A DNA stretch of 42,384 bases, taken from a virus. The notes beneath the pieces were generated by a model. The model had not been told where the DNA came from. It worked only from the letters and a program-made list of their open reading frames with translations, and searched no databases. A program made the position numbers and the translations under genes. Shown piece by piece: positions 2 to 38,227 of the stretch (position 1 is the first letter of the stretch; every line of letters starts with the position of its first letter). The DNA lies in IMG/VR virus record IMGVR_UViG_3300047491_001507; one strand, written 5' to 3'.

Positions 2-478
2 TTGTATGGAAAGTTGGCTGAACTTGTATGCAAAGTTGAAAAAAACTGGTATAATGGATGTATGACTCCATTCAAACCTTTTCAAATTCGCTGGAAAGAA
101 CCTCTAGGGAAGCCGGAATGTCCCTATTTGTATCGATGGACCTTCATCATCTTCAACTTCTCGATCCGAATTCACCACTGGATTCGGTCAGATGATAAAA
201 GATTTTTTCATGATCACGCTTGCAATTTTGTTTCGATTGTGCTAAAAGGAAGGTATACTAATGTTACTGCTGAAGGGAGAACAGAAGTAAAAGCTGGTTC
301 TTTTTGGTATTCCCATGCCAAAAAACAGCATTATCTGGATGTTCCTGAAGGTGGAGCATGGACGTTATTGTTTTGTGGTCGTCCCTATCATAAATGGGGA
401 TTTTACGTTAAAGGACATAAGTGGCGACCCCTGAGATATTTCCATAAATTTGGGGTTCCACCGTGTGATATGCAGTAA
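2..478 (+). CDS. Hypothetical protein, 5'-truncated at the window edge (His-rich motif HHW..SDD..HDH, possibly a cupin-like metal site).
   Basis: ORF is open from the window start. Its stop overlaps the next start as TAATG at 476-480. Confidence 0.45.
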   Translation: MYGKLAELVCKVEKNWYNGCMTPFKPFQIRWKEPLGKPECPYLYRWTFIIFNFSIRIHHWIRSDDKRFFHDHACNFVSIVLKGRYTNVTAEGRTEVKAGSFWYSHAKKQHYLDVPEGGAWTLLFCGRPYHKWGFYVKGHKWRPLRYFHKFGVPPCDMQ

Positions 479-843
479 TGGCATTACAGAATGATATTGC
501 AATAGCTGGATTGTATATTTTCCCAACATACCGAGGATTGTTGTTAGGAACACCCGATGAAGAAATGGACAAGCGTCTCATTTCAGATGCTGAACAAAAA
601 GCAGCAAAACAATTCGGCTTGCCTGTATATGTTGTCAAACCAGATGTCAAACTCAATCGTCTTCCAGATTATACCATTCTAGCAGAACTAGAAATGTTTG
701 AAATAGAAGGTGATTTCGACGGGAGAACACTCACAATTGTTCTATTTGTCGATAACATTTACTCAATGCCAATTGACCAAATTATTGACAATAACATCCA
801 AGAATTAGACTGGAAAAAACATTCAAAACTGTGGAGTTTTTAG
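478..843 (+). CDS. Hypothetical protein (121 aa).
   Basis: TAATG-coupled to the upstream ORF. A long open frame in a stop-rich, AT-rich background. Confidence 0.45.
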   Translation: MALQNDIAIAGLYIFPTYRGLLLGTPDEEMDKRLISDAEQKAAKQFGLPVYVVKPDVKLNRLPDYTILAELEMFEIEGDFDGRTLTIVLFVDNIYSMPIDQIIDNNIQELDWKKHSKLWSF

Positions 844-868: not shown

Positions 869-1039
869 CAGCGAGTAGCTCATTGGTAGAGCACCAGTGT
901 CTTGTGTGATTCTGGCAATTTGGCAATGAAGTCTGGGGACGCTCAGATGTATGGGTCAAATTGCCGCTGAGCTTCGGGCTTAGTTACCGGATACAAGACG
1001 ACAAACTGGAGGTTGGGGGTTCGATTCCTTCCTCGCTGA
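869..1039 (+). tRNA. tRNA-like gene with a 106-nt insertion replacing or within the anticodon loop. Candidate intron-containing tRNA or a disrupted tRNA.
   Basis: Acceptor stem CAGCGAG (869-875) pairs perfectly with CTCGCTG (1032-1038). Position 8-9 is TA. D-arm is GCTC-ATTGGTA-GAGC. Anticodon stem CCAGT (894-898) pairs with ACTGG (1005-1009). Variable loop is AGGTT. T-arm is GGGGG-TTCGATT-CCTTC (two G.U pairs). Discriminator is A. There is no encoded CCA. The insertion 899-1004 begins GTCTTGT and ends ACAAGAC, which extends the anticodon helix. Confidence 0.6.
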
Positions 1040-1042
1040 CAA

Positions 1043-1236
1043 CTAAGGGTAGCCCAGATGGTAGAGCACCAGTCGTCTTTTGTACTGTTTCAGTGTTCTT
1101 CTACAGACGCTTAGGGACGCCTCAAGCAGTCTGTTACGGAAACTTAGGGACGCCTAAGCAAGATGTTTTTAGAACTACTGTTTTAGTGCAAAAGATAACA
1201 TACTGGAGGTCGCAGGTTCGATTCCTGCCCCTTAGA
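1043..1236 (+). tRNA. tRNA-like gene with a 128-nt insertion in the anticodon loop. Candidate intron-containing tRNA or a disrupted tRNA.
   Basis: Acceptor stem CTAAGGG (1043-1049) pairs perfectly with CCCTTAG (1229-1235). D-arm is GCCC-AGATGGTA-GAGC (one mismatch). Anticodon stem CCAGT (1069-1073) pairs with ACTGG (1202-1206). Variable loop is AGGTC. T-arm is GCAGG-TTCGATT-CCTGC. Discriminator is A. Insertion ends TCTTTTG / CAAAAGA pair to extend the anticodon helix. The motif TTAGGGACGCCT occurs twice inside the insertion. Confidence 0.6.
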
Positions 1237-1299
1237 CTGAAAAAATTTTGTTGTACTGTTGACACAAAAACTGCACTTGAGGTCCGATTGGCCGAACCT

Positions 1300-1339
1300 C
1301 CTCACCAGTTGGATGCATGCGTACATCCAACTGGTGAGG
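1300..1339 (+). promoter_or_regulatory. Perfect 16-bp inverted repeat (CCTCACCAGTTGGATG / CATCCAACTGGTGAGG) with an 8-nt loop, in the tRNA locus spacer. Candidate RNA processing or regulatory hairpin, or a dimeric operator.
   Basis: Both arms were read directly and are exact reverse complements. No T-run follows, so this is not a terminator. A second, CCGCATGCGG palindrome lies at 1368-1377. Confidence 0.4.
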
Positions 1340-1384
1340 TCAGTGTTTGAAAAAACTGGCCGTGCTTCCGCATGCGGTCGTCGT

Positions 1385-1413
1385 GAAAAGCCCACCGAAA
1401 GGTGGGCTTTTTT
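1385..1413 (+). terminator. Rho-independent terminator ending the tRNA transcription unit. Also usable from the minus strand after the Dam-like gene.
   Basis: GAAAAGCCCACC-gaaa-GGTGGGCTTTTTT: a GC-rich 8-bp stem, a GAAA loop and a T6 run. The reverse orientation has a T4 run. Confidence 0.8.
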
Positions 1414-3844: not shown

Positions 3845-4342
3845 CTAAAATTCAACAAAGATTTTAGCCTCTTTTAAAACATGGACGGTTTTCCATAAGT
3901 GTTTACAAGCTCCAGGTAGTTCACTTGGATTAGCTGGAGGACCACCTTTTGATTCGTATTTGGTACGTTTTCTGCCATACAATGATTTGTCCAAATGGTT
4001 GTAAAAATTGAATCTATAAGAAAAATCCTTGCAATTGCACCGCACTAAAACATCTGAATTTTCTAAAGAAATTCTGTCAAAGTTGTATTGTTTACCATCA
4101 CTGGCCTTTAAAAGCACTTCGTTGCCATCATAATTGACATTTTTAAAGAGAATAATGGGATTATACTCACGCTCTTCATTTTGAGCTAAACTCTTGACAA
4201 ATAAAGTTTTAAGACCTAAAAATGGCACCCAGGTCAAGTTTTTAATGATAATTGGGTGTGTAGCGTTTTGTCTCAGCCCACATTGTGGAAATGCTGATAC
4301 AGTTGATAAATAAAGGTCTTGTAAGCTTGATTCAATAAACAT
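3845..4342 (-). CDS. Hypothetical protein with a SWIM-type zinc finger (CxC-x25-CxH) near the C-terminus.
   Basis: VRCNCKDFSYRF...GACKHLWK. The start at 4342 is only 16 nt from the divergent start at 4359. Confidence 0.4.
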   Translation of the reverse strand: MFIESSLQDLYLSTVSAFPQCGLRQNATHPIIIKNLTWVPFLGLKTLFVKSLAQNEEREYNPIILFKNVNYDGNEVLLKASDGKQYNFDRISLENSDVLVRCNCKDFSYRFNFYNHLDKSLYGRKRTKYESKGGPPANPSELPGACKHLWKTVHVLKEAKIFVEF

Positions 4343-4358
4343 ATTACTACTATATGTA

Positions 4359-5486
4359 ATGCAGCAAGCTATTCAATTATTAACTCAAGCGGTAAATTTT
4401 CAGGAAAAATCCGAATTTGAATCAGCAGAAGTATTGATGCGAAAAGCTCTTAAAATACTCAAAGAGCAATATCATGACGATAAAGCAGAACAATGCTTCA
4501 ATGCTGCTATGCAATTCCAAGACGGCAAACGTATCCAATTAGCTTTGGATATGTTTATGAAGTCCTATGACTACTTTCCTTCCCGTATGACTTTTGATTG
4601 TATTCTTAGATGTCTTATGCATTTAAGACAATACGAAAAAATGTGGGAATTCTATGAAAAAAGGTTTGATCTATACGATACCATGATTGCCTATCGTAGA
4701 ATCTTCAAAGATCGAGCTTGGGACGGAGTAGCCTCGTTAGAGGGAAAAAGATTGTTGGTTTTTTGTGAACAGGGTTTAGGCGATCAAATCATGTTCGTTC
4801 CTTACATTCAAGAATTACAAAAAAGGTTTAATTGCCAGATCGTACTAAGTTGTGCTGGAAAATTAGAAAAATTGTTTAATTTGCAAGGATTCCAAACCAT
4901 TCCCAAAGAACATATCAGTACAGACTGTATGCCTGAATTTGATTTTCATACTACCAGTATGAGTTTGCCTAAATTGCTCAAGATTTTTGAGCCAATACCT
5001 CAAACGAATACTTTTAATATTGAGACAAAATGGGAACTTGACTCCTTTAAAATTGGAATAATTGCCAAAGGCAATCCTAATAGTTTTAATGATATTCGCA
5101 GAAATGTGAATCCTAAATGGTTTCAAAAGATATTAAATGAAAACGTACAACTGTATAATCTGCATAATTCCGAGCCGGTTTATGACCCAAATATCATTGA
5201 ATTAGGACCAAGAATCAATGACATTTATGATTTGGCGGTGATGATTAATTCGATGGACTTGATCATTACTGTGGAAACAGTTGTTTTTCCATTAGCAGCA
5301 GCAATGGGAAAAAATGTATGGGTTTTAAGCCCTTATCTTTGTGATTGGAGATTTGGCATATCAGGAGATCAAACACCTTGGTATCCTTCGGTTAAATTAT
5401 ATCGACAAACAAATCTCCAAGATTGGGGCTCAGTGTTTGATAGTATAAATCATGATTTAATTAAATATATTCAGGAGGTAAAATGA
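4359..5486 (+). CDS. TPR-like N-domain fused to a GT9-family (heptosyltransferase-like) glycosyltransferase domain.
   Basis: GT9 hallmark LLVFCEQGLGDQIMFVPYIQ (Gly-rich ADP-heptose pocket). C-terminal pattern MDLIITVETVVFPLAAAMGKNVWVL is typical of GT9 C-domains. Confidence 0.6.
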   Translation: MQQAIQLLTQAVNFQEKSEFESAEVLMRKALKILKEQYHDDKAEQCFNAAMQFQDGKRIQLALDMFMKSYDYFPSRMTFDCILRCLMHLRQYEKMWEFYEKRFDLYDTMIAYRRIFKDRAWDGVASLEGKRLLVFCEQGLGDQIMFVPYIQELQKRFNCQIVLSCAGKLEKLFNLQGFQTIPKEHISTDCMPEFDFHTTSMSLPKLLKIFEPIPQTNTFNIETKWELDSFKIGIIAKGNPNSFNDIRRNVNPKWFQKILNENVQLYNLHNSEPVYDPNIIELGPRINDIYDLAVMINSMDLIITVETVVFPLAAAMGKNVWVLSPYLCDWRFGISGDQTPWYPSVKLYRQTNLQDWGSVFDSINHDLIKYIQEVK

Positions 5487-11070: not shown

Positions 11071-11094
11071 CCGCCCTTCGTGGGCGGTTTTTTT
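11071..11094. terminator. Bidirectional intrinsic terminator between convergent genes.
   Basis: CCGCCC-ttcgt-GGGCGG followed by T7 on the plus strand and T4 on the minus strand. Confidence 0.8.
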
Positions 11095-12439
11095 ATTTAA
11101 TTGGTTTGCCAGAAAATCTCACCTTCATTTGAAGACCGCCACGAGCAGGACTTAAAAATCGACTAAAGCTTAAATTGTGTATGATCGGTTCTACATCATG
11201 TAGTCGCAAACAATAAGCTACTAAACTGCCACAAACACTTCCTCGCCCTGGACCAACACACTCCGAGCCATCTCCAAAACCTAAAATTTCCTTCCCTGCA
11301 CTTCTCGCTTCATCAATCATTTCTTTTTGAATCAAAAAATAGCTAGAAAATCCTTTTTTGGAAATAAGCTCATATTCCTCCTTGATGCGATTTCTATATT
11401 CTTCAGTATCAGGACATCTTCTAGCTTTCAATCCTTTTTGAGTTTCTTGCCACAAAATCATATCAGGAGCATCTACCTTAGGAAATTTAATTTCTCTATT
11501 TAACTGCACGCCTTTACACGATTTAGCAATCTTAACAGAATTTAATTTGGCTTGTTTGAACAATTCGTAATCTATATTATCTTGATAATCTTTTTCCCAC
11601 TTTTCGTTAAGCTCATCTTCACTTTTCATCCATAAATTAGAATCTTGCAGTTCGAATGCATCTTCTTCTGCATTGATCATAGCCTCAACTTCTTGAATGG
11701 TCCTTTTGTTTTTTTGCATCAACATCAAACGTTGATTAAGAGAATGTGCGCCAATGCAATAATGAGTGTCTTGAGTCAGTACTAAAGGAACGCCAAATTT
11801 ATCATGAGCTTTGATCAAAAATGAATTGTAATCTTTTTGACCTTTAAAATCCAACATCATAATTTCAAGTCTGAAATTAGGCGAAAACATCTCTTGGTAC
11901 AAACGTACCATATCCATTGCTGCATCTTCGCCATCATTCATTAAGGCATTGGCAATTTCGCTATTTGCACATCCACTTAGAAAGATCAAGCCTTTTTTGT
12001 GTCTTTTTAAGACTTCCCGAGTAACTCGTGGTTTGCGATAAAAGCCATGAATCCAACCCCAAGATGAAACCTGTACTAAATTAGAATAACCTTCATCTGT
12101 TGCAGCAAGAATTGTTAAGTGACAAGACTTATCAAATTTCTTTTGCAGATGTTCTGGCAAATCCTTGCGAAAATCAGCCGATTCTTGACGTACCTGAACT
12201 TCAGGCTGCATATCGTTAACATATGCTTCCATAGCAAAAATTGGATGCAGATTATGTCTTTCACATTCTGTAATTTGGCTTGGAACCGCTCCCATTACTC
12301 CGTGATCAGTAACACATAGGTGTTTTTGATTTAATTGCGGCATCCGTTCCGCATATTCGGCAACTGTAGCAAACCCATCAAGGAGCGAAAATGAGGTATG
12401 ACGATGAAGGTGTTCAAATCCACAAACCGGATGATTCAT
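11093..12439 (-). CDS. DnaE (Pol III alpha)-like N-terminal fragment: PHP domain plus the start of the polymerase core. It stops before the catalytic aspartates.
   Basis: HLHRHTSFSLLDG PHP motif. C-terminal GPGRGSVCGSLVAYCLRLHDVEPI...SRFLSPARGG matches the DnaE GPGRGS...ERFLNPER block. The stop follows immediately, then the terminator. No continuation is encoded downstream. Confidence 0.65.
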   Translation of the reverse strand: MNHPVCGFEHLHRHTSFSLLDGFATVAEYAERMPQLNQKHLCVTDHGVMGAVPSQITECERHNLHPIFAMEAYVNDMQPEVQVRQESADFRKDLPEHLQKKFDKSCHLTILAATDEGYSNLVQVSSWGWIHGFYRKPRVTREVLKRHKKGLIFLSGCANSEIANALMNDGEDAAMDMVRLYQEMFSPNFRLEIMMLDFKGQKDYNSFLIKAHDKFGVPLVLTQDTHYCIGAHSLNQRLMLMQKNKRTIQEVEAMINAEEDAFELQDSNLWMKSEDELNEKWEKDYQDNIDYELFKQAKLNSVKIAKSCKGVQLNREIKFPKVDAPDMILWQETQKGLKARRCPDTEEYRNRIKEEYELISKKGFSSYFLIQKEMIDEARSAGKEILGFGDGSECVGPGRGSVCGSLVAYCLRLHDVEPIIHNLSFSRFLSPARGGLQMKVRFSGKPIK

Positions 12440-15552: not shown

Positions 15553-16506
15553 TTAAGTAGTTAAAAACTGCTTATGTCTAAATTCTTCTAGATTCTTAGC
15601 ATCAAAATAGCTCATAGAGCTTCTTAGCCCATCTGAGAATCTTGCCACAATCTGTTCTAAAGTTTCATTGTTGAAATCCAACAATACCGTCTTGCCCTCA
15701 ATATATTTAGGTTTGTCTCTATAAATAGACTGAATCTCAAATGAGGCAGAACCATGATAGACCTTATAAAACCTACCATCCCGCTTAATTAGATCTGCGG
15801 GGCTATCGCTGGCGGCAGCTAGCACAGATCCCAACATTACCACATCTGCTCCAATTGCTAAAGCTTTGCAAAAATGTTCTGTGTTTTTAATCCCGCCATC
15901 AGCAATGATCAAAGCTTTAAGATATCCTTCATCCTTAACTTTACGACATTCCTTAATCAAAGAACCCATGGGTTGATATACGCCAGTGGAGTCTTTGGTG
16001 GTACAAGCGTTTCCTCCAGCTATTCCAACACGAACCCCGATAACATTGTCAAGATTTGCACACCACACAAAAGTTTCTGCCGATGCCACATTTCCTACAA
16101 TAAACTTAACATCGTCATGTATGCCAATCAGTTTTTCAATGCATTTTTTAACTAAGATATTGGCTCCATTAGCCGTATCAACACAAAATACCCTGCAACC
16201 AGCATTATATAAAGCTTCAAATCGTTCTACAAAATCACCATTAACACCAATTGCAGCAGCCATTTCATGAAATCTACAATAATCATTATGCTGTTCTTCT
16301 ATAGAAGAAAAACGATGCAGAATGCCATAGCATCCATTTCTGACCAATTTCTGACCAAATGCTCCATCACATACATCTCGCATTGGAGAAGCAATGATAG
16401 GCATTTTAAGTTTAGCATTGCCAATTGTCACCGAAGTGTTTATTGCTTCTCTGGAAATGATATTAGAAACCACTCTTGGAATTAAATATATGTCGTCTAG
16501 ATTCAT
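15553..16506 (-). CDS. guaC: GMP reductase / IMP dehydrogenase-family TIM-barrel protein (GuaC-like).
   Basis: PIIASPMRDV, catalytic-loop region GIAGGNACTTK, and IIADGGI...ALAIGADVVMLG motifs. Confidence 0.75.
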   Translation of the reverse strand: MNLDDIYLIPRVVSNIISREAINTSVTIGNAKLKMPIIASPMRDVCDGAFGQKLVRNGCYGILHRFSSIEEQHNDYCRFHEMAAAIGVNGDFVERFEALYNAGCRVFCVDTANGANILVKKCIEKLIGIHDDVKFIVGNVASAETFVWCANLDNVIGVRVGIAGGNACTTKDSTGVYQPMGSLIKECRKVKDEGYLKALIIADGGIKNTEHFCKALAIGADVVMLGSVLAAASDSPADLIKRDGRFYKVYHGSASFEIQSIYRDKPKYIEGKTVLLDFNNETLEQIVARFSDGLRSSMSYFDAKNLEEFRHKQFLTT

Positions 16507-18104
16507 TTTAAAAATTCCTTTTCATATTGTTCTTTAGGAACTAAATAAATATGCTCGTCAGGATCTGGCCCATCACAATAATACACAACTTCTTCTCCAT
16601 CGACATTTCTTGTGCCCAACAACACCACATCCCTCCAAATTCTATGAATAGAAGTCATGGTTTCACGCACATATTTTTCATACAAAGGACGATCATCCCA
16701 ATAATGCTGCATGAAAAACCAACCCTTGCCCAAATGATTAGGGTCAGTCAAGCGAATGTCGGGAAAACCTCCATTCAAATGCCTATTGAGCAGATTTTTC
16801 TTGATGGAATCAAAATCTCGATTCACAATTTTGTATTCTCCATTGGGGAATTTTCGCCATTCATAGAATTGTTTACGATCACAAAATTCTCTGGTGAAAA
16901 ATTCTTGAACCAATGTATAATCATTGTAAAATTTTCTAACTTCAAATACTTTTTCTTTACCTAATCCTAATTGTTTATCCCATTTTTCCTTTTCTTTCAT
17001 ATCCTGGCATTCTTCGTATTCTCGTCCAAATTTGCCTTTGTTCCATCGATCCTCGATATCCAAAAGCAATTCAAATCCCAATTTATAGGGATTCATAGAA
17101 TACTTTCCGCCCAAGACCTGCATTTTATGCTTGGAATATTCCCAAATTCCACAATCAGTGGTAGGTTGCCCTAAAGACACTAGCCCTTCTCTACAAAGAA
17201 GATGATAATCTACATAAGAGGCCCAACCTTCATTTATCATTTTGGTACGTCTCTGAGGATCAAAATACATCGATTCCTCATACAACATAGTGATAATGTC
17301 TTGTTGCCAAGGCTTTAAAGGGGCATGGTCCTTTAAATAACCCATAATATTTTTTTCTGGCTTTTCAAAAATATCCAGAAATTCTTTGGCATCCTTACGT
17401 TCAATAATTTCATGTTCTCTTTCGATATATTCCTTAGGATTCACCCATTCATCCATATAATTATGAGTTGAATCCAAACGACGAGGGTGACGATAATTTC
17501 TTTCGTCCTTGATTACCGCTTTCTTAATTTTACGTTGCTTCCAGGCATCTTGAGGATTAATCAATGTTTCAATTCTCAATACCTGATCGATAAACTCAGT
17601 AACTGTTTCCCTGCCCCAACGTGCCATATAATTGCGGATTCTTGTGCCGTGATTCGCAAGTTTGTTCATCATGTTTCCATCTGTAGGATGGAAGAAAATG
17701 TTGTTTTTAAAGAAATCGTTATGTCCAATGGCATGACAAATAACATTAATATTATCCACCAGGGTGTTAGAATCCATTATGTAAATACGACAAGGACAGG
17801 TATTCACAACCATTTCTGATATACGATATTGGTTAAATTCATATCCTCTTGCCAATTGCTCATATTCCATACCCCACTTCCAATGGGGATATCGTACAGG
17901 AAACCCTCCGTAACTAGCTAACTCTGACATTTCATCATAACAAACGAATTCCAGAATGATTGGGTAATAATCCAATCCCATACCCTTACATGCCGCTTCA
18001 ATTTGAGGCAATATTTCGACTACTTCCTTGTGTACTGGCACACCTGGGATAGTGTTATTGCCTTGTAGAATCGGAGAGCCACTAAACATTTTGGATTTAG
18101 ACAT
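16503..18104 (-). CDS. spoVR: SpoVR / YcgB-family protein.
   Basis: YPHWKWGMEYEQL...EMVVNTCP...HAIGHNDFFKNN matches the YcgB/SpoVR core (AHAAFGHNDFFKNN). 533 aa. ATGA-coupled to the downstream gene. Confidence 0.75.
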   Translation of the reverse strand: MSKSKMFSGSPILQGNNTIPGVPVHKEVVEILPQIEAACKGMGLDYYPIILEFVCYDEMSELASYGGFPVRYPHWKWGMEYEQLARGYEFNQYRISEMVVNTCPCRIYIMDSNTLVDNINVICHAIGHNDFFKNNIFFHPTDGNMMNKLANHGTRIRNYMARWGRETVTEFIDQVLRIETLINPQDAWKQRKIKKAVIKDERNYRHPRRLDSTHNYMDEWVNPKEYIEREHEIIERKDAKEFLDIFEKPEKNIMGYLKDHAPLKPWQQDIITMLYEESMYFDPQRRTKMINEGWASYVDYHLLCREGLVSLGQPTTDCGIWEYSKHKMQVLGGKYSMNPYKLGFELLLDIEDRWNKGKFGREYEECQDMKEKEKWDKQLGLGKEKVFEVRKFYNDYTLVQEFFTREFCDRKQFYEWRKFPNGEYKIVNRDFDSIKKNLLNRHLNGGFPDIRLTDPNHLGKGWFFMQHYWDDRPLYEKYVRETMTSIHRIWRDVVLLGTRNVDGEEVVYYCDGPDPDEHIYLVPKEQYEKEFLK

Positions 18105-18134
18105 TTTTTAATCTTCCTTAATACACAATTTAAC

Positions 18135-19097
18135 TTAACTTGGCTTTTTTTCAAGCTCTTTTTCAAGAAATTTAACAATTTGCAGCCAACTACCAGGATT
18201 TCTAAATAAAGTCACTGACGGATACCAGATAGTTTTACTTTCCCTTCCCCATCGAGGATCAGCATGAACAGGCAATAGTCCCCAAGTTGGCACTCCCATC
18301 ACCCCTGCTAAATGCAATACAACAGTATCCACACTAATTACAAGAGACATTTGACTTATTAATTCGGCAGTATCTAGAAGATCCTTTATTTTATTTGGCA
18401 AAAACAAATTGCATTCATGAGGAATTAAAGAATGTAGTTTGAATTTCTCTAAACGCACCAAATCCGGCAACGGAATGGACTTGTCTTTAAACAGATTGTT
18501 TTCTGGATTACTTTCCCAAGCAATTCCTATTTTAAAATCATCAGGTTTTTTGTAAGGATAAACAGATACTTGCTGAGGAATCGTTGTCTTTTCCAGCAAA
18601 TCTTTAAAATGAGCAGGATAATACACATCGTACTTCAATCCGGCTAAAATCGCTGGAACACTAAGAATATTAGTGTGATAATCGCATCGAACATGACTGT
18701 AAACAAAACGATCAATAGATGTTACGCCATGTAGCAATCGTTCGAATTGATCATAATAAGGATAACAATTCAAAGTAATAGTGCAACTTTTCCACCTATC
18801 TTTAATGACAGGCAAATAGCGAAGCATGTTGATTAAATCACCCATGCCTTGATCTGAGAAAATTTCAATAGATTTTCCAGATAGATCTTGTCCAGTCCAA
18901 TTAACACCAAAATGATCTTGTGTTAGATTCTTTTCATAAAGACTGACAAAATTTTTAACCAAAAAATCCTTAGGAAATAACCTAGAAAGCATTTCCAGTA
19001 AAGGTTTTGCTCTTTCTTTTTGGTTGGTGCAGAAATAATTATTGCAAGTGGCTAAAATATGAGATTTCATGCCGCTTGTGATTGTGTGGAATTTCAT
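18135..19097 (-). CDS. GT9-family heptosyltransferase-like glycosyltransferase (320 aa).
   Basis: SDQGMGDLINMLRYLPVIK (GT9 Gly-rich N-motif). C-terminal ...ISVDTVVLHLAGVMGVPTWGL. Confidence 0.65.
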   Translation of the reverse strand: MKFHTITSGMKSHILATCNNYFCTNQKERAKPLLEMLSRLFPKDFLVKNFVSLYEKNLTQDHFGVNWTGQDLSGKSIEIFSDQGMGDLINMLRYLPVIKDRWKSCTITLNCYPYYDQFERLLHGVTSIDRFVYSHVRCDYHTNILSVPAILAGLKYDVYYPAHFKDLLEKTTIPQQVSVYPYKKPDDFKIGIAWESNPENNLFKDKSIPLPDLVRLEKFKLHSLIPHECNLFLPNKIKDLLDTAELISQMSLVISVDTVVLHLAGVMGVPTWGLLPVHADPRWGRESKTIWYPSVTLFRNPGSWLQIVKFLEKELEKKPS

Positions 19098-19136
19098 TTT
19101 TCCATTTCTTCAAAATGAATACACCCAAACATAAAA

Positions 19137-20390
19137 TCACACAGGATTTTTAGCGTCTGAACGACCTAACAATTTACGAATCGCATCAATAATCTGCGTA
19201 TCTCTTGTTTCATCATCCATGTTAACTGGACTGTAATTCCAACTATTACCACTAGACTCAGTGCTGGCAGATGAGCCAATATCTACCGATCTTAAATAAT
19301 CGCTTTTAATATTCTCATCAATTGCCTTCTTGACACTACCTTCATAATTCCAAGAGCAAATCTGAGAAATCCCAATCATATTGACGATGTTAGGACTAAG
19401 TTGTTCGTTGATGATATTGACTACCTTTTCATTGTCTCCATCCCAGTTATCTCCATCTGTAAAATAAAATATATAAATATTAAATGCTTCTGGAGGATAA
19501 CGATTTTCTAATTGTTCAGCGATGGATTTGAACACAGACGAGCATAAAGTTCCGCCCATGTATCGCATTTTGTAAAATTGATCCTCATTAACTTCCATAG
19601 CTCGTGTGTCATGGACAAAATAACAACGATCAACTCGTTTATAAAACCTCTTGATCCAACAATCGATCCACCAAGCCATGTCAGAAACAATATCGCAACG
19701 AAAATCATCCATACTTCCAGAACAATCTCGGGCAAAGAAAATCACTGCATTAGATGAAGGGATTTTAATTTCTTTATATTGACGATATCTTCGATCAGAA
19801 TTAATTGGAGCAATCAAACGAATTGGCATCTTCATGCCAGGAAGTTGATGTACCTTTTCTAGACTTTTAGTCATTGCCAATCGTTTCAAAGTCTCCATAA
19901 TAGTTCGACGGGTATGCCTTAAAGACTCAGGACCAGTTTTGGAAATATCATTGTACTTAATCTTTACTTCTTCAAAAGTCTCATTGGGCTTAGGTTCCAT
20001 ACGAGGAAGCTTCAGTTCTTCCTCCATAAATTTCAAAACATCATCCAAGTCTACAGTAATATCAATGCCTTCGCCCGATTGATCGCCCGCTTTATTCCCT
20101 TTTCCAGGCTGAGGATCTCTGCCGATAATATCACCTTCCTTCCCAGGACCTCGTGCAATGCCTTTCCCCTGAGTGCCAAAGGCAAAATGGGGGATTTCAA
20201 TTTCAGGAATAGAGATGGTCATTTTACCACCTTTAGGACGATTTCGGACAATTGAGCCGGATTTAATTAAACGCTTTAACTCTCTCCTAGCTCTACCAGA
20301 GATTACATCCCTAAAACCTTGCCAATCTTCATGAATTCTCTTAGTAATAAAGCACCTATTTTCTGTAAACTTGGATGACGAAAAGTTCAA
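19137..20390 (-). CDS. yeaH: YeaH/YhbH-family protein (DUF444, vWA-like).
   Basis: VIFFARDCSGSMDD MIDAS-like DxSGSM motif. 417 aa. Sits between SpoVR-like and PrkA-like genes. Confidence 0.7.
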   Translation of the reverse strand: MNFSSSKFTENRCFITKRIHEDWQGFRDVISGRARRELKRLIKSGSIVRNRPKGGKMTISIPEIEIPHFAFGTQGKGIARGPGKEGDIIGRDPQPGKGNKAGDQSGEGIDITVDLDDVLKFMEEELKLPRMEPKPNETFEEVKIKYNDISKTGPESLRHTRRTIMETLKRLAMTKSLEKVHQLPGMKMPIRLIAPINSDRRYRQYKEIKIPSSNAVIFFARDCSGSMDDFRCDIVSDMAWWIDCWIKRFYKRVDRCYFVHDTRAMEVNEDQFYKMRYMGGTLCSSVFKSIAEQLENRYPPEAFNIYIFYFTDGDNWDGDNEKVVNIINEQLSPNIVNMIGISQICSWNYEGSVKKAIDENIKSDYLRSVDIGSSASTESSGNSWNYSPVNMDDETRDTQIIDAIRKLLGRSDAKNPV

Positions 20391-21010
20391 ACGTTATGTT
20401 CTAAAACATCTCTTGCAGCACAAATTTGCTTAATTTCTTTTTCTTCCGACTTTTCCATAACCAAAAGCCACCAAAATCCTTGAGATGGAAATCTGTCCAA
20501 AACACTATTCTCTAAATAAGGAAACACTCTAAATTCGCCGCCATATTTGTCCATCAACTGATGACAATAACCAGGAGCATTTCCGTATTTGTTGAACCCT
20601 ACAGGCATATCTGCTTGGCCACCAGTAATTAACTTAAAACTACTAAATCGTTCAAACAAAATATCTGCTGTTTTCAAAAACATCTCCCCATAAGTCCAGG
20701 TATAATATACCTCAACAACGGGAATTTCACAAGTAGTAAAATCCCCAACTAAAATGTCTAATCCTCTGTTTATAGCTACAGAATAACGAGCCGGATCTTT
20801 TTCAATCCCAATCACACTTTTGGCATGCTTCGCCATTTGTGCCATAATATCTCCTTCGCCACAACCAACATCACAAACTGTTTTGCCAGTAATGATATCT
20901 TTTATAGCTTCAACTATGCACAAAGGAGATCGCCAAGGAAATGGCCGTACAAATTCACTAGGATCAGGACAAACTAAAGGCAAATCTATAATTTTCGCTA
21001 TACTTTTCAT
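20387..21010 (-). CDS. Class I SAM-dependent methyltransferase.
   Basis: Motif I VCDVGCGEGDIM. Acidic residue after beta2 (IGIEKD). Confidence 0.65.
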   Translation of the reverse strand: MKSIAKIIDLPLVCPDPSEFVRPFPWRSPLCIVEAIKDIITGKTVCDVGCGEGDIMAQMAKHAKSVIGIEKDPARYSVAINRGLDILVGDFTTCEIPVVEVYYTWTYGEMFLKTADILFERFSSFKLITGGQADMPVGFNKYGNAPGYCHQLMDKYGGEFRVFPYLENSVLDRFPSQGFWWLLVMEKSEEKEIKQICAARDVLEHNV

Positions 21011-21023
21011 GTGTAATCCTTAA

Positions 21024-21056
21024 TTGTCCCATGTGTACATTGTACACATGGGACAA
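21024..21056. promoter_or_regulatory. Perfect 16-bp inverted repeat TTGTCCCATGTGTACA-t-TGTACACATGGGACAA between the PrkA stop and the methyltransferase RBS. Operator or processing hairpin.
   Basis: Read directly. The core GTGTACA-N-TGTACAC recurs at 42315-42331. Confidence 0.45.
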
Positions 21057-21066
21057 TAATTAAATG

Positions 21067-23205
21067 TTAATTTTCAGCAACATCACCGGTTGCAAACAAA
21101 GAGCTACAGTAATCGAGCACATCCGTGGCAGATTGCTGATTGTAACCATAATTCTTGATCAGCCTTGTCTTTACTGCTTCAAGCTTTTCCTGAAGATCTG
21201 GATCTACTTCTGATGCTTCTCTGGTTAAAGATGACAATTTAATGGTAGATCTAACATCCTCAAACATCTTGGCTTGCAAAGCTCGTTGCAATTCAGGATT
21301 GGAATCCCAGCTAAATTCCTGTTTGCGACGAGCCAACGTCCCAATAAACGATGACAAAGATCTACGAAAATCATCACATCCCTGTTCGGGAATGTTATTC
21401 TTTTCTTCGATACTTCGCATGAGACGCTCGTCTGGGTCCATCTTTTCTCCTGTGATCGGATTGATCATCTTCTCTTCATTTACATAAGCAATGACATTGT
21501 CAATGTATTTATTGCACAACCGTTCAATTGCCTTCTCATCTGCCACAAGAGCTTTCTGAACTTCATTCTTGAGAATTTCGTTCAGTTCTTTGATTGCCAA
21601 TTCCGCACAATATTCATATCGCTTAATATCTTCCACATTAGTGATCAAAGATGAAGCAGAAAGTCCTGCCTTCAACTCCGACATCACATGGAACACATTA
21701 ACATACGACTTGTGCCTTGCAAGACAATTAGAAAGCTTATCTTGCACATAACGAGCAGAAACGCCCGTATCCATACCTTCCGTAGTATACTTGTCTCTTA
21801 ATTCCTTAACAGAATCTTCTGTCCATCCTGGCAGAGCCCGACCATCATACAATTTCGCTTTATCACGAAGGTCCAGCTTTTTGTCAGGATCGTCATATAA
21901 TCGTGTCAAAACCGCAAATAAAGCAGCAATTTCTAGAGTATGCGGCATCATGTGCTGTTTGATTTTGGTAGGCCCGTAATCCTGTTCCAAAACCTTAATT
22001 TCATCAGACCATCTCAAAAGATATGGCACATCAATCTTAATAGTACGATCCCGCAAAGCTTCCATGAATTGGTTGCTCTTTAGGCGTTGAAATTCCGCAC
22101 CATTTGTATGGGATACAATCAATTCATCAATAACAATTTGGCTAAATTTCTTTGGTTTAATCTGGTGTTCTTGAGAAGCACCCAGCAAATCATAAAGAAA
22201 TTCATTGGTCAATTTCAACATTTCGATGAATTCAACCATACCACGATTGCCAACTTCAAATTCTCCATCGAAATTAAATGCTCGACTGTCAGAATCAGCC
22301 CCAAAATGTCCGATTTTGGCGAAATTCATGTCGCCAGTCAGTTCTGTGCTATCCTGATTTTTCTCATCTTTTGGTTGAAAAGTGCCAATACCTACTCGAT
22401 CAATTTCAGAATGGACTCGACGTACCACACGAATATGTTCTGTGACAACTTTAAACCAATCGCCATTGTATCGACGCAAAAGTTCACTCATAAAGAACTT
22501 ACAACGAGGATTCAAATCTCCTTCAGAGATTAATTCATAAGGAGAATCCCCATTATGTTGTTTGGAGAAAATGTCATTCAATTCTTTCAAAAAGACATTA
22601 CGCATTGACATTGGCATTAATTTCAATGGATTTTCATTCATTGGAGACATGCAAGTATCTTCAGTATACATTGCATTAATGCCTTCACATGGCAAATTGA
22701 CCCATTTATAAGAATACCAAGCTCCTTCTGGAGTGCGGCTGTATTTTTCCAAACCACGCTTAATCAAACGGCAAATTGTGGATTTCGAAGAACCAACAGG
22801 TCCATGTAGCAACAAAACACGATGTTCTGTGCCATATCCTCCAGCAGCACCTTGAATAAAATCCACAAGCTGCTGCAAAGTTTCTTCCAAACCAAAGATT
22901 GGAATCTCTTGATCATTAAAGAAATTGTAACGATTATAGCTTTTACGATATCTTTCGAAGGCAGTCACGCCTTTTGAAATAATCATATCGTAAATATATT
23001 GAAATGAATTTCTGGCCAAAGTCGGCTTGCTTTTAAGTTGCTCGACATAGTCTGAGAAACTCATTTCTTCATGAAGAGCCATAAATTCCTTACGATCATA
23101 CAATTGTGCGTACTGCATTAGGCTTGAAGAGACAGAGTTTTGTTGTTCCATAAGTAATTTCTGCTTTCTACAAAGTTGAGTTTGTAATTCTTGCTTCATC
23201 CACAC
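21067..23205 (-). CDS. prkA: PrkA/YeaG-family serine protein kinase (AAA+ N-domain plus kinase-like C-domain).
   Basis: P-loop block RVLLLHGPVGSSKSTICRLIKRGLEKYS. 712 aa. Conserved N-terminal and C-terminal architecture of the PrkA family. Confidence 0.8.
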   Translation of the reverse strand: MWMKQELQTQLCRKQKLLMEQQNSVSSSLMQYAQLYDRKEFMALHEEMSFSDYVEQLKSKPTLARNSFQYIYDMIISKGVTAFERYRKSYNRYNFFNDQEIPIFGLEETLQQLVDFIQGAAGGYGTEHRVLLLHGPVGSSKSTICRLIKRGLEKYSRTPEGAWYSYKWVNLPCEGINAMYTEDTCMSPMNENPLKLMPMSMRNVFLKELNDIFSKQHNGDSPYELISEGDLNPRCKFFMSELLRRYNGDWFKVVTEHIRVVRRVHSEIDRVGIGTFQPKDEKNQDSTELTGDMNFAKIGHFGADSDSRAFNFDGEFEVGNRGMVEFIEMLKLTNEFLYDLLGASQEHQIKPKKFSQIVIDELIVSHTNGAEFQRLKSNQFMEALRDRTIKIDVPYLLRWSDEIKVLEQDYGPTKIKQHMMPHTLEIAALFAVLTRLYDDPDKKLDLRDKAKLYDGRALPGWTEDSVKELRDKYTTEGMDTGVSARYVQDKLSNCLARHKSYVNVFHVMSELKAGLSASSLITNVEDIKRYEYCAELAIKELNEILKNEVQKALVADEKAIERLCNKYIDNVIAYVNEEKMINPITGEKMDPDERLMRSIEEKNNIPEQGCDDFRRSLSSFIGTLARRKQEFSWDSNPELQRALQAKMFEDVRSTIKLSSLTREASEVDPDLQEKLEAVKTRLIKNYGYNQQSATDVLDYCSSLFATGDVAEN

Positions 23206-37581: not shown

Positions 37582-37832
37582 AGTTTTCTTCCTTTTTGTA
37601 AGCTTGCTCTAGCCATATCCCTTGTAATTTCGTCTATTTCTGGGTCACCATCCTCCAAAATCTTAATTTGACTGAATGGAATTCCAGTAACAACTTTATT
37701 ATCGCCTGGACCACCCATATTATACACTAATACATCTACTGTGTCTTCGTGTATTTCTTGAATTTCACCAGTGCAATTCAAATCCCATCGATTCTTGATG
37801 GGAACTAACACTAAATCGCCAACAATCATCAC
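37578..37832 (-). CDS. Small hypothetical protein.
   Basis: ATGA-coupled. Confidence 0.4.
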   Translation of the reverse strand: MMIVGDLVLVPIKNRWDLNCTGEIQEIHEDTVDVLVYNMGGPGDNKVVTGIPFSQIKILEDGDPEIDEITRDMARASLQKGRKL

Positions 37833-38227
37833 ATCACCGTTGCCTTTCCTTCACTCACATGATTAGGTAAATCATTCAGTTCTTCTGGCAACAAACCTCG
37901 TTCGATCATTGTCGCTGTATGGATATAAGCTAATATATTCCATCCAGCTTGAGCCATGTGTGGCTCGTCTCGATGTCCTTCTAAATGTTTGAAAAGATGT
38001 CTTAAGGCACTATCAATATAGCGAGACAAAGGAATGCCTTTCTCAAAATTCCTGCTTTCATACTTTTTTGCACCTTCTTCAAACACTCTAGCAACAGCAA
38101 AAATCGCTGTTGCTGGCAACAAATCGTAACGACCTTTACCTTCTTGAATGTCTCTCTGGGCACCTGTTTGAAATTTTTGTCGTTCTCCAGAATCTTGGAG
38201 ATTACGGTCAGCGTATGGATCACTCAT
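37829..38227 (-). CDS. dATP/dGTP diphosphohydrolase-like protein (phage MazG-associated N-domain family).
   Basis: GKGRYDLLPATAIFAVARVFEEGAKKYESRNFEKG...SALRHLFKHLEG...HMAQAGWNILA matches the conserved block KPR.DLLP...GA.KY..NW.KG seen in phage dNTP pyrophosphohydrolase-like proteins. Confidence 0.5.
   Translation of the reverse strand: MSDPYADRNLQDSGERQKFQTGAQRDIQEGKGRYDLLPATAIFAVARVFEEGAKKYESRNFEKGIPLSRYIDSALRHLFKHLEGHRDEPHMAQAGWNILAYIHTATMIERGLLPEELNDLPNHVSEGKATVM

Follow-up and report, generated by a model that had tools for sequence, protein, structure and literature searches.

What do two genes encode that have the framework of a transfer RNA (tRNA) and, in place of the anticodon loop, a folded insertion of more than a hundred nucleotides (nt)? 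This question is raised by a stretch of viral DNA of 42,384 nt, IMG/VR record IMGVR_UViG_3300047491_001507, which is referred to below as the window. At positions 869–1236 it carries two such elements in tandem on the plus strand, E1 (869–1039) and E2 (1043–1236), which are best explained as tRNA-derived genes of a ∼306-kb bacterial jumbo phage. Our tentative answer, to which we give somewhat less than an even chance, is that E1 and E2 are tRNA-scaffolded non-coding RNAs that retain their inserts.

Two tRNA frameworks with interrupted anticodon arms

E1 is a tRNA-like gene of 171 nt. Its 5′ half (869–898), delimited by the sequence and the tRNA-model alignment, comprises one acceptor strand, the D arm and CCAGT (894–898), while its 3′ half (1005–1039) consists of ACTGG (1005–1009), the variable loop AGGTT, the T arm with TTCGATT (1020–1026), the second acceptor strand and A73, the discriminator at 1039. 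The acceptor strands CAGCGAG (869–875) and CTCGCTG (1032–1038) form a perfect stem of 7 base pairs (bp), and CCA is not encoded. Separated from E1 by a spacer of 3 nt (CAA, 1040–1042), E2 is a tRNA-like gene of 194 nt with an equally perfect 7-bp acceptor stem, CTAAGGG (1043–1049) and CCCTTAG (1229–1235), a discriminator A at 1236 and, again, no encoded CCA. Its anticodon stem (CCAGT, 1069–1073; ACTGG, 1202–1206) is identical to that of E1, and the two elements have in common the D arm, a 5-nt variable loop, the T arm with TTCGATT and the discriminator A. Between the halves of the anticodon stem lie exactly 106 nt in E1 (899–1004) and 128 nt in E2 (1074–1201).

An earlier, sequence-only reading of the window had claimed tRNA frameworks with structured insertions of just these lengths between identical CCAGT/ACTGG halves, and our data bear this out. 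It had also called the frameworks flawless, which is true of the 7-bp acceptor stems and the 5-nt variable loops but not of every position: E1 has two G·U pairs in the T stem and a U15/U48 pair, E2 has a C·A mismatch in the D stem, and both start with the unusual pair C1-G72.

When the region was searched alone, the Rfam tRNA model (RF00005; cut-off 29 bits) aligned with the whole length of E1, allowing for an insertion of 106 nt and scoring 45.9 bits; E2 was not reported by this model. ARAGORN in intron mode (-i), a check that the sequence-only reading had proposed, called both E1 and E2, and only these two, in the window. Default ARAGORN and a gathering-mode Rfam scan returned nothing and thus missed both. 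Folding was far more stable than that of shuffled controls, with z-scores of -4.3 for E1, -5.0 for E2 and -5.0 for the whole pair, and the transcript of the pair was predicted to fold into two separate cloverleaves, each with an extended arm. E1 and E2 therefore have the four arms and the conserved T- and D-loop residues of a tRNA cloverleaf, but have no anticodon loop of 7 nt in which U33 is present and an anticodon can be read. Similarity of the tRNA bodies to 510 phage tRNAs gave no isotype assignment, and the body is not diagnostic of Val; a Thr-like signal was rejected as a bias of the search pattern. An open reading frame (ORF) that overlaps both elements (961–1350) was dropped as a candidate protein gene, since no family match was found in support of a coding reading.

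The inserts share one architecture

Each insert opens, after 0 or 1 nt, with a helix that prolongs the anticodon stem and that we call P1 (GUCUU.../...AAGAY). In the E1 insert, P1 is formed by 899–907 and 991–999 in both the minimum free energy (MFE) and the centroid structure, and in the fold of the E2 insert it is formed by 1075–1087 and 1184–1196, following the single linker nucleotide C1074. P1 thus measures 9 bp in E1 and 13 bp in E2 in the MFE folds, and it includes the complementary heptamers GTCTTGT/ACAAGAC and TCTTTTG/CAAAAGA that had been noticed before. On the 3′ side, five unpaired bases, GACAA (1000–1004) in E1 and AACAU (AACAT, 1197–1201) in E2, or RACAW, lie between P1 and the anticodon stem. 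In both inserts P1 leads into a three-way junction with a long hairpin capped by G-GACG-C. In E1 this long hairpin spans 914–965 with its GACG loop at 938–941, and the second hairpin of the junction (966–984) is UUCG-like, whereas in E2 the second hairpin has a GACG loop as well (the two GACG hairpins lie at 1110–1126 and 1143–1158). The heptamer GGGACGC occurs three times in the 42 kb, always in these inserts, with the E2 copies at 1114 and 1147. The shared motif GGGACGC(C)TCA described earlier therefore holds in its GGGACGC part, which is indeed present twice in E2, but the second of these copies reads GGGACGCCTAAG instead of ending in CTCA.

A comparison of E1 with E2, which as a comparison of two paralogues is statistically weak, revealed changes on both sides of a pair, with pairing kept, at 4 of the 7 acceptor pairs and at one T-stem pair, as well as at one P1 pair and three pairs of the GACG hairpins within the inserts. 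E1 and E2 agree completely in the anticodon stem with its flanking bases and in the GGGACGC loop of the hairpins. Since the stems covary and the loops are invariant, both the tRNA frame and the architecture of the insert appear, as judged from the sequence, to be under selection. This pattern fits a conserved functional domain on a freely drifting scaffold.

These observations bear on the idea that E1 and E2 are decaying, functionless tRNA pseudogenes, disrupted by a small mobile element with terminal inverted repeats (GTCTT...AAGAC). The inserts do open with GTCTT and close with AAGAY in the manner of inverted repeats, and no relatives were found in any collection searched (see below). Decay is however difficult to reconcile with stems that are all maintained by compensatory changes and with folds far stabler than those of shuffled sequences. 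Moreover, the pair of termini and GGGACGC are confined to E1 and E2 within the window and have no copies in the collections, and the two inserts occupy the same site with interiors that are alike in architecture rather than in sequence. We therefore consider the inactivating mobile insertion, which the sequence-only reading had listed among its options, to be improbable.

The inserts match no catalogued RNA class

No Rfam family was matched by the inserts at E ≤ 10, either in a search of positions 700–1500 or when each insert was searched alone, and this excludes introns of groups I and II, all catalogued self-cleaving ribozymes and transfer-messenger RNA (tmRNA). The Rfam check proposed with the sequence-only reading, which covered group I introns, twister and hammerhead ribozymes and tmRNA, thus came back empty. 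Specifically, the hammerhead, twister, pistol, hatchet, hepatitis delta virus and other small-ribozyme models had no match to the inserts, and the group I covariance model, including its P3-P8 core, matched neither the region nor either insert.

Known group I introns are ∼200 nt or longer, whereas the inserts, at 99–128 nt, are half the minimal size. A P1 helix with a U·G pair was not found by reading the sequence, and E1 and E2 have no recognisable guide sequence or omega-G arrangement in common. What the inserts do share with group I tRNA introns is that an RNA intervenes in the anticodon loop of a bacterial-type tRNA gene, the position typical of such introns in bacteria (PMC13011429). Degenerate group I introns, or any other known self-cleaving or self-splicing ribozyme, are accordingly a very unlikely identity for E1 and E2, in agreement with the earlier view that the inserts are not group I introns.

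The tRNA introns of archaea and eukaryotes that are cut by EndA are likewise short, protein-spliced and located in the anticodon arm. Their hallmark, the bulge-helix-bulge of two 3-nt bulges flanking a 4-bp helix, was not present in the MFE or centroid structures of E1 and E2; the corresponding region shows instead the 5-nt 3′ bulge, then the 9- or 13-bp P1 helix, and a multiloop. In addition, the genome context of E1 and E2 is bacterial.

The elements resemble tmRNA (SsrA), in which a tRNA-like acceptor and T-arm module, matured by tRNA enzymes, is combined with a large structured domain that replaces the anticodon region. A tmRNA is also encoded by the uncultured huge phage LR756511.1 (595 kb), the closest genome that we reached. 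Unlike E1 and E2, however, tmRNA lacks a D stem and an anticodon stem and has a tag reading frame and pseudoknots. ARAGORN (-m) called no tmRNA, and an Rfam tmRNA match of 12 bits involved the T arm alone.

One match required separate consideration. The Rfam model of YrlA (RF02553), a Y RNA that partners Ro60/Rsr, hit the junction of E1 and E2 with 28.8 bits (E = 5e-4), far under its gathering cut-off of 69. In YrlA, a tRNA-like domain is linked via a helix resembling an anticodon stem to a long stem that binds protein. Some phages have a YrlA, and TROVE proteins can be encoded by jumbo phages (PMC4201824, PMC7824862). A YrlA-type RNA that runs from the 3′ half of E1 into the 5′ half of E2 (995–1082) would be in line with the complementarity of AAGACGAC in E1 to GUCGUCUU in E2 and with a GACGA in E1 that resembles the Rsr motif GNCGAA (PMC4201824). 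However, the segment 990–1090 folded no better than shuffled sequences (z -0.5), the full transcript folds as two cloverleaves, the motif is not conserved in E2, no TROVE gene was found among the scanned ORFs of the 42-kb window, and there would be no explanation for two perfect acceptor stems of 7 bp. The hit straddles the junction because YrlA mimics a tRNA in circularly permuted form; its ends lie in the long stem and its acceptor is closed by a loop, whereas E1 and E2 end at the acceptor and have the arm closed. We regard a YrlA-type RNA as very improbable.

Excision would yield a canonical anticodon loop from E2 only

The sequence-only reading had judged the mature anticodon to be ambiguous and had named CUU and GAC for E1. 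To see what excision could restore, every single-segment deletion was enumerated for both elements. For E1 this yielded GUGACAA (Val-GAC), GUCUUAA (Lys-CUU) and other loops, always with G32 or C33, and no cut position produced a pyrimidine at position 32 together with U33. The ambiguity thus stands for E1, whereas E2 has a sole canonical solution: removal of 121 nt after position 32 leaves the loop CUAACAU with anticodon AAC (Val). Exact removal of the domain closed by P1 leaves loops of only 5 and 6 nt. Since the stem stays intact at any cut position, a single canonical solution among two elements is, by a rough, unsimulated estimate, close to the yield expected by chance. Excision by RNase III, also suggested previously, was dropped, as a loop of 7 nt would require cuts that leave a 3′ overhang of 2 nt in E1 and not in E2, and therefore no consistent geometry.

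Of the options put forward in the sequence-only reading, the mobile insertion and the RNase III-processed element are disfavoured, and a spliced intervening sequence and a tRNA-scaffolded RNA remain. Under the former, to which we assign roughly a one-in-three chance, E1 and E2 would be functional tRNA genes with a new, non-group-I intervening sequence that is removed, after which the halves are rejoined. The agents would be protein enzymes like those of phage RNA repair, an endonuclease plus a ligase (RtcB or Rnl), or else a small ribozyme that has escaped recognition; a splicing factor would use the conserved GACG hairpins and P1 as its handle; and the products would be tRNA-Val(AAC) from E2 and tRNA-Val(GAC) or tRNA-Lys(CUU) from E1. 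Splicing is supported by the ARAGORN models of both elements as intron-containing tRNAs, by the canonical C-U-AAC-A-U loop of E2, and by the fact that both bulges can be read as positions 34–38 of tRNA-Val, with A73 in both. Against it stand the failure to obtain Y32-U33 from E1, the near-chance yield of one solution in two, a cut geometry that differs between the elements, inserts without group I features, bulge-helix-bulge motif or ribozyme match, and a tRNA body that does not point to Val. Furthermore, it needs an endonuclease and a ligase, or a ribozyme, and no splicing enzyme was found in the window.

Insert-bearing tRNA genes occur in other large phages

No sequence relatives of E1 and E2 were found in IMG/VR, JGI metagenome contigs, GTDB genomes or GenBank phages. 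Searches by DNA patterns (the 5′ junction, the 3′ junction, both junctions, or a hairpin plus the T arm) returned ordinary tRNAs and chance or coding matches only, and BLAST of the locus against GenBank phages gave no match. Homologues of the neighbouring proteins (54–66% identity, on short contigs) had no tRNA-like element directly downstream of their gene in the sequence covered. Finally, the whole genome of LR756511.1 contained no E1/E2-like element and no hairpin with a GACG loop.

During these searches we did, however, encounter unannotated tRNA genes with structured anticodon-arm insertions in several large phages, and these fall into two classes. In the first, removal of the insert restores a perfect arm. 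A tRNA-Asn(GUU) with 43 nt after position 28 and a tRNA-Pro(UGG) with 44 nt after position 29 (L088 and L165) each carry a hairpin plus UAACAGCAAU. Inserts of this type, of 43–51 nt with a hairpin and UAACAGCWAU, were located at 255–1027 of L088 (also in L021 and L099) and at 1416–1534 of L165 (minus strand), inside the anticodon stem between positions 28 and 29 or 29 and 30. The L088 elements lie just upstream of a DUF2828/DUF7788 gene, whose product we take to be TROVE/vWA-like. LR756511.1 has three tRNA genes with inserts, at c[220337–220430], c[289133–289258] and c[291310–291437]. Among its members of this class are a tRNA-Met(CAU) with a 21-nt hairpin at 32/33 and a tRNA-Arg(UCG) with 50 nt at 26/27; the third element shares the motif AGCAUACAAACA with the Arg-UCG insert. 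The restoration of perfect arms in these Asn, Pro, Met and Arg tRNAs speaks for splicing of E1 and E2 as well, since inserts of this class behave like true intervening sequences.

The second class is a conserved family found in the 324-kb jumbo-phage contig L160 (5532–6570, minus strand) and in the cultured Burkholderia phage FLC9 (LC667451.1, our L277; ∼3948–4400), 78% identical, where the elements lie unannotated inside normal tRNA arrays. Their insert is placed on the 5′ side of the loop and comprises a T-arm-like hairpin and a hairpin resembling an acceptor; one member has a D-like segment in addition. The anticodon stem thereby seems to bear another tRNA-like head, in permuted form. One element of this class weakly matched the T-AS-D module of YrlA (21 bits). 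The bases that immediately precede the anticodon stem's 3′ strand read NACAW in E1, in E2, in four L160 elements and in one FLC9 element; the other two FLC9 elements have CACCA and AACUA at this site. Since the inserts of this family are T-arm-like and hairpin modules with NACAW, they suggest, by analogy, functional grafted domains rather than spacers.

The closest architectural analogue of E1 and E2 that we found is an element at 923–1053 of the 463-kb phage contig L162, in which a Glu/Asp-type tRNA body bears a coaxial hairpin of ∼60 nt that extends the anticodon arm; no canonical loop was recoverable from it. In literature searches we came across neither short phage tRNA introns outside group I nor tRNA-scaffolded RNAs of phages, and no paper on insert-bearing tRNA genes of either class was retrieved.

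A third structured RNA repeats the anticodon-stem helix

Between E2 and an intrinsic terminator lies a third structured RNA, E3 (1271–1377, plus strand), which was delineated by its multi-branched fold (z -6.4) and by sequence comparison. The base of its 15-bp hairpin (1301–1315/1324–1338), CACCAGU...ACUGGUG, is the anticodon stem of E1 and E2 together with its flanks. Other hairpins of E3 display AUUGG, comparable to the D loop of E1, and the T-loop-like UUUGAAA. The Rfam tRNA model did not recognise E3, which is possibly a degenerate third copy. A heptamer known from the Ro60-binding site of vertebrates, GGUCCGA, is present in E3 as well.

The terminator (1390–1413, plus strand) consists of the stem-loop GCCCACC-GAAA-GGTGGGC (1390–1407) and a T-run (1408–1413), as seen in both sequence and fold, and faces the end of a convergent methyltransferase gene. 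E1 and E2 thus form a stand-alone unit with its own terminator, outside any tRNA array, and the locus looks like a three-gene RNA operon organised around one conserved helix.

E1 and E2 as possible tRNA-scaffolded RNAs

In the scenario that we prefer, the anticodon loop would have received a folded domain as a graft on its 5′ side, and E1, E2 and E3 would be made as one transcript ending at the terminator (1390–1413). The tRNA part would recruit the usual enzymes of tRNA maturation, with RNase P acting at the 5′ ends and the 3′ ends being trimmed and provided with CCA, and would fold into a stable L-shape, while the insert would remain in the mature RNA. The products would be tRNA mimics of ∼170–195 nt that are unable to decode on the ribosome. 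As their working surface, the GACG hairpins and the bulge would be displayed to a partner, which may be a protein of phage or host origin, or an enzyme directed at tRNA, with the RNA serving as its platform or decoy.

Such an arrangement has an engineered precedent. Ponchon and Dardel reportedly devised tRNA scaffolds for recombinant RNA in which a cargo takes the place of the anticodon loop, a design with which the RNA is correctly processed and stable in bacteria. The cloverleaf is intact, as it is in E1 and E2, and a helix that stacks on the anticodon stem closes off the cargo; the difference is that the engineered scaffold is artificial, and we know of no natural counterpart that has been described.

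A tRNA-scaffolded RNA explains why the anticodon stem and insert are conserved beside drifting acceptor stems, why no canonical loop can be obtained from E1, and why such elaborate tRNA-like modules are present in the L160/FLC9 family. It also explains the helix common to E3, which splicing leaves unexplained. Further points in its favour are the restriction of GGGACGC to the inserts, the loops of only 5 and 6 nt that exact excision of the P1-closed domain would leave, and the location of the elements in a unit of their own with a terminator. Several points weigh against it, in addition to the two-paralogue basis of the covariation. The fully canonical Val-AAC loop of E2 is one, and the existence of true intervening sequences in related huge phages is another. 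Furthermore, no TROVE/Rsr, RNA ligase or nuclease gene was present among the scanned ORFs of the 42-kb window, in which no partner protein for E1 and E2 was identified, and the retention of the insert in the mature RNA is something that we infer. On balance, we lean slightly towards a scaffold over an intron, on account of E3 and the analogous jumbo-phage elements, a choice made from sequence.

It is conceivable, though we hold it to be doubtful, that E1 and E2 belong to an undescribed class in large bacterial viruses of tRNA-based RNAs with structured anticodon-arm modules, be these introns or scaffolds. If so, they would be its largest and most elaborate members among those found here. Were the inserts introns, no tRNA introns outside group I would precede them in the bacterial world. 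Infected bacteria would then possess a splicing pathway that is protein-based or relies on a new ribozyme, and bacteria or their viruses would have a tRNA splicing route besides group I self-splicing. Were they retained, E1 and E2 would be natural tRNA carriers displaying cargo domains, for example as decoys for tRNA-targeting defence enzymes, and would join tmRNA and Y RNAs as a third type of RNA that mimics tRNA, with biotechnology's tRNA-scaffold design realised in nature. Independently of this, standard annotation (default ARAGORN, Rfam in gathering mode) misses E1, E2 and similar elements, including those of the cultured phage FLC9. Phage tRNA repertoires are therefore incomplete, which affects analyses of codon adaptation and of counter-defence against anticodon nucleases.

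Genome context

The window has 36% G+C and densely packed short ORFs, and it appears to belong to a very large virus of bacteria. The protein encoded just upstream of E1 is identical to a JGI protein on a contig of 306,208 bp. Amino-acid identity to LR756511.1 was 47–60% over four proteins (PrkA, SpoVR, DUF444 and DnaE). As LR756511.1 encodes 63 tRNAs in addition to its tmRNA, the host world is bacterial.

The genes for PrkA, DUF444 and SpoVR form a phage-encoded trio (16503–23205, minus strand; compare the bacterial yeaG, yeaH and ycgB) that is also kept in LR756511.1. The same holds for a stand-alone DnaE fragment of 448 residues (11093–12439, minus strand), which comprises the PHP domain and the beginning of the polymerase domain. 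Further proteins of the window include ClpP, DHFR, a Dam-type methylase and an HNH nuclease.

Directly upstream of E1 lies an ORF (478–843, plus strand) whose homologues, of 192–199 residues, have ∼63 additional N-terminal residues compared with the window version; this N-terminal part is either missing or located in another frame overlapping ORF 2–478, which matches a PHROG annotated as cysteine dioxygenase. Elsewhere in the window, there is a GMP-reductase/IMPDH-like gene (15553–16506), and a MazZ-like N-terminal domain of a dATP/dGTP diphosphohydrolase (37829–38227, minus strand; E = 4e-21) may hint at a DNA metabolism with the modified purine aminoadenine.
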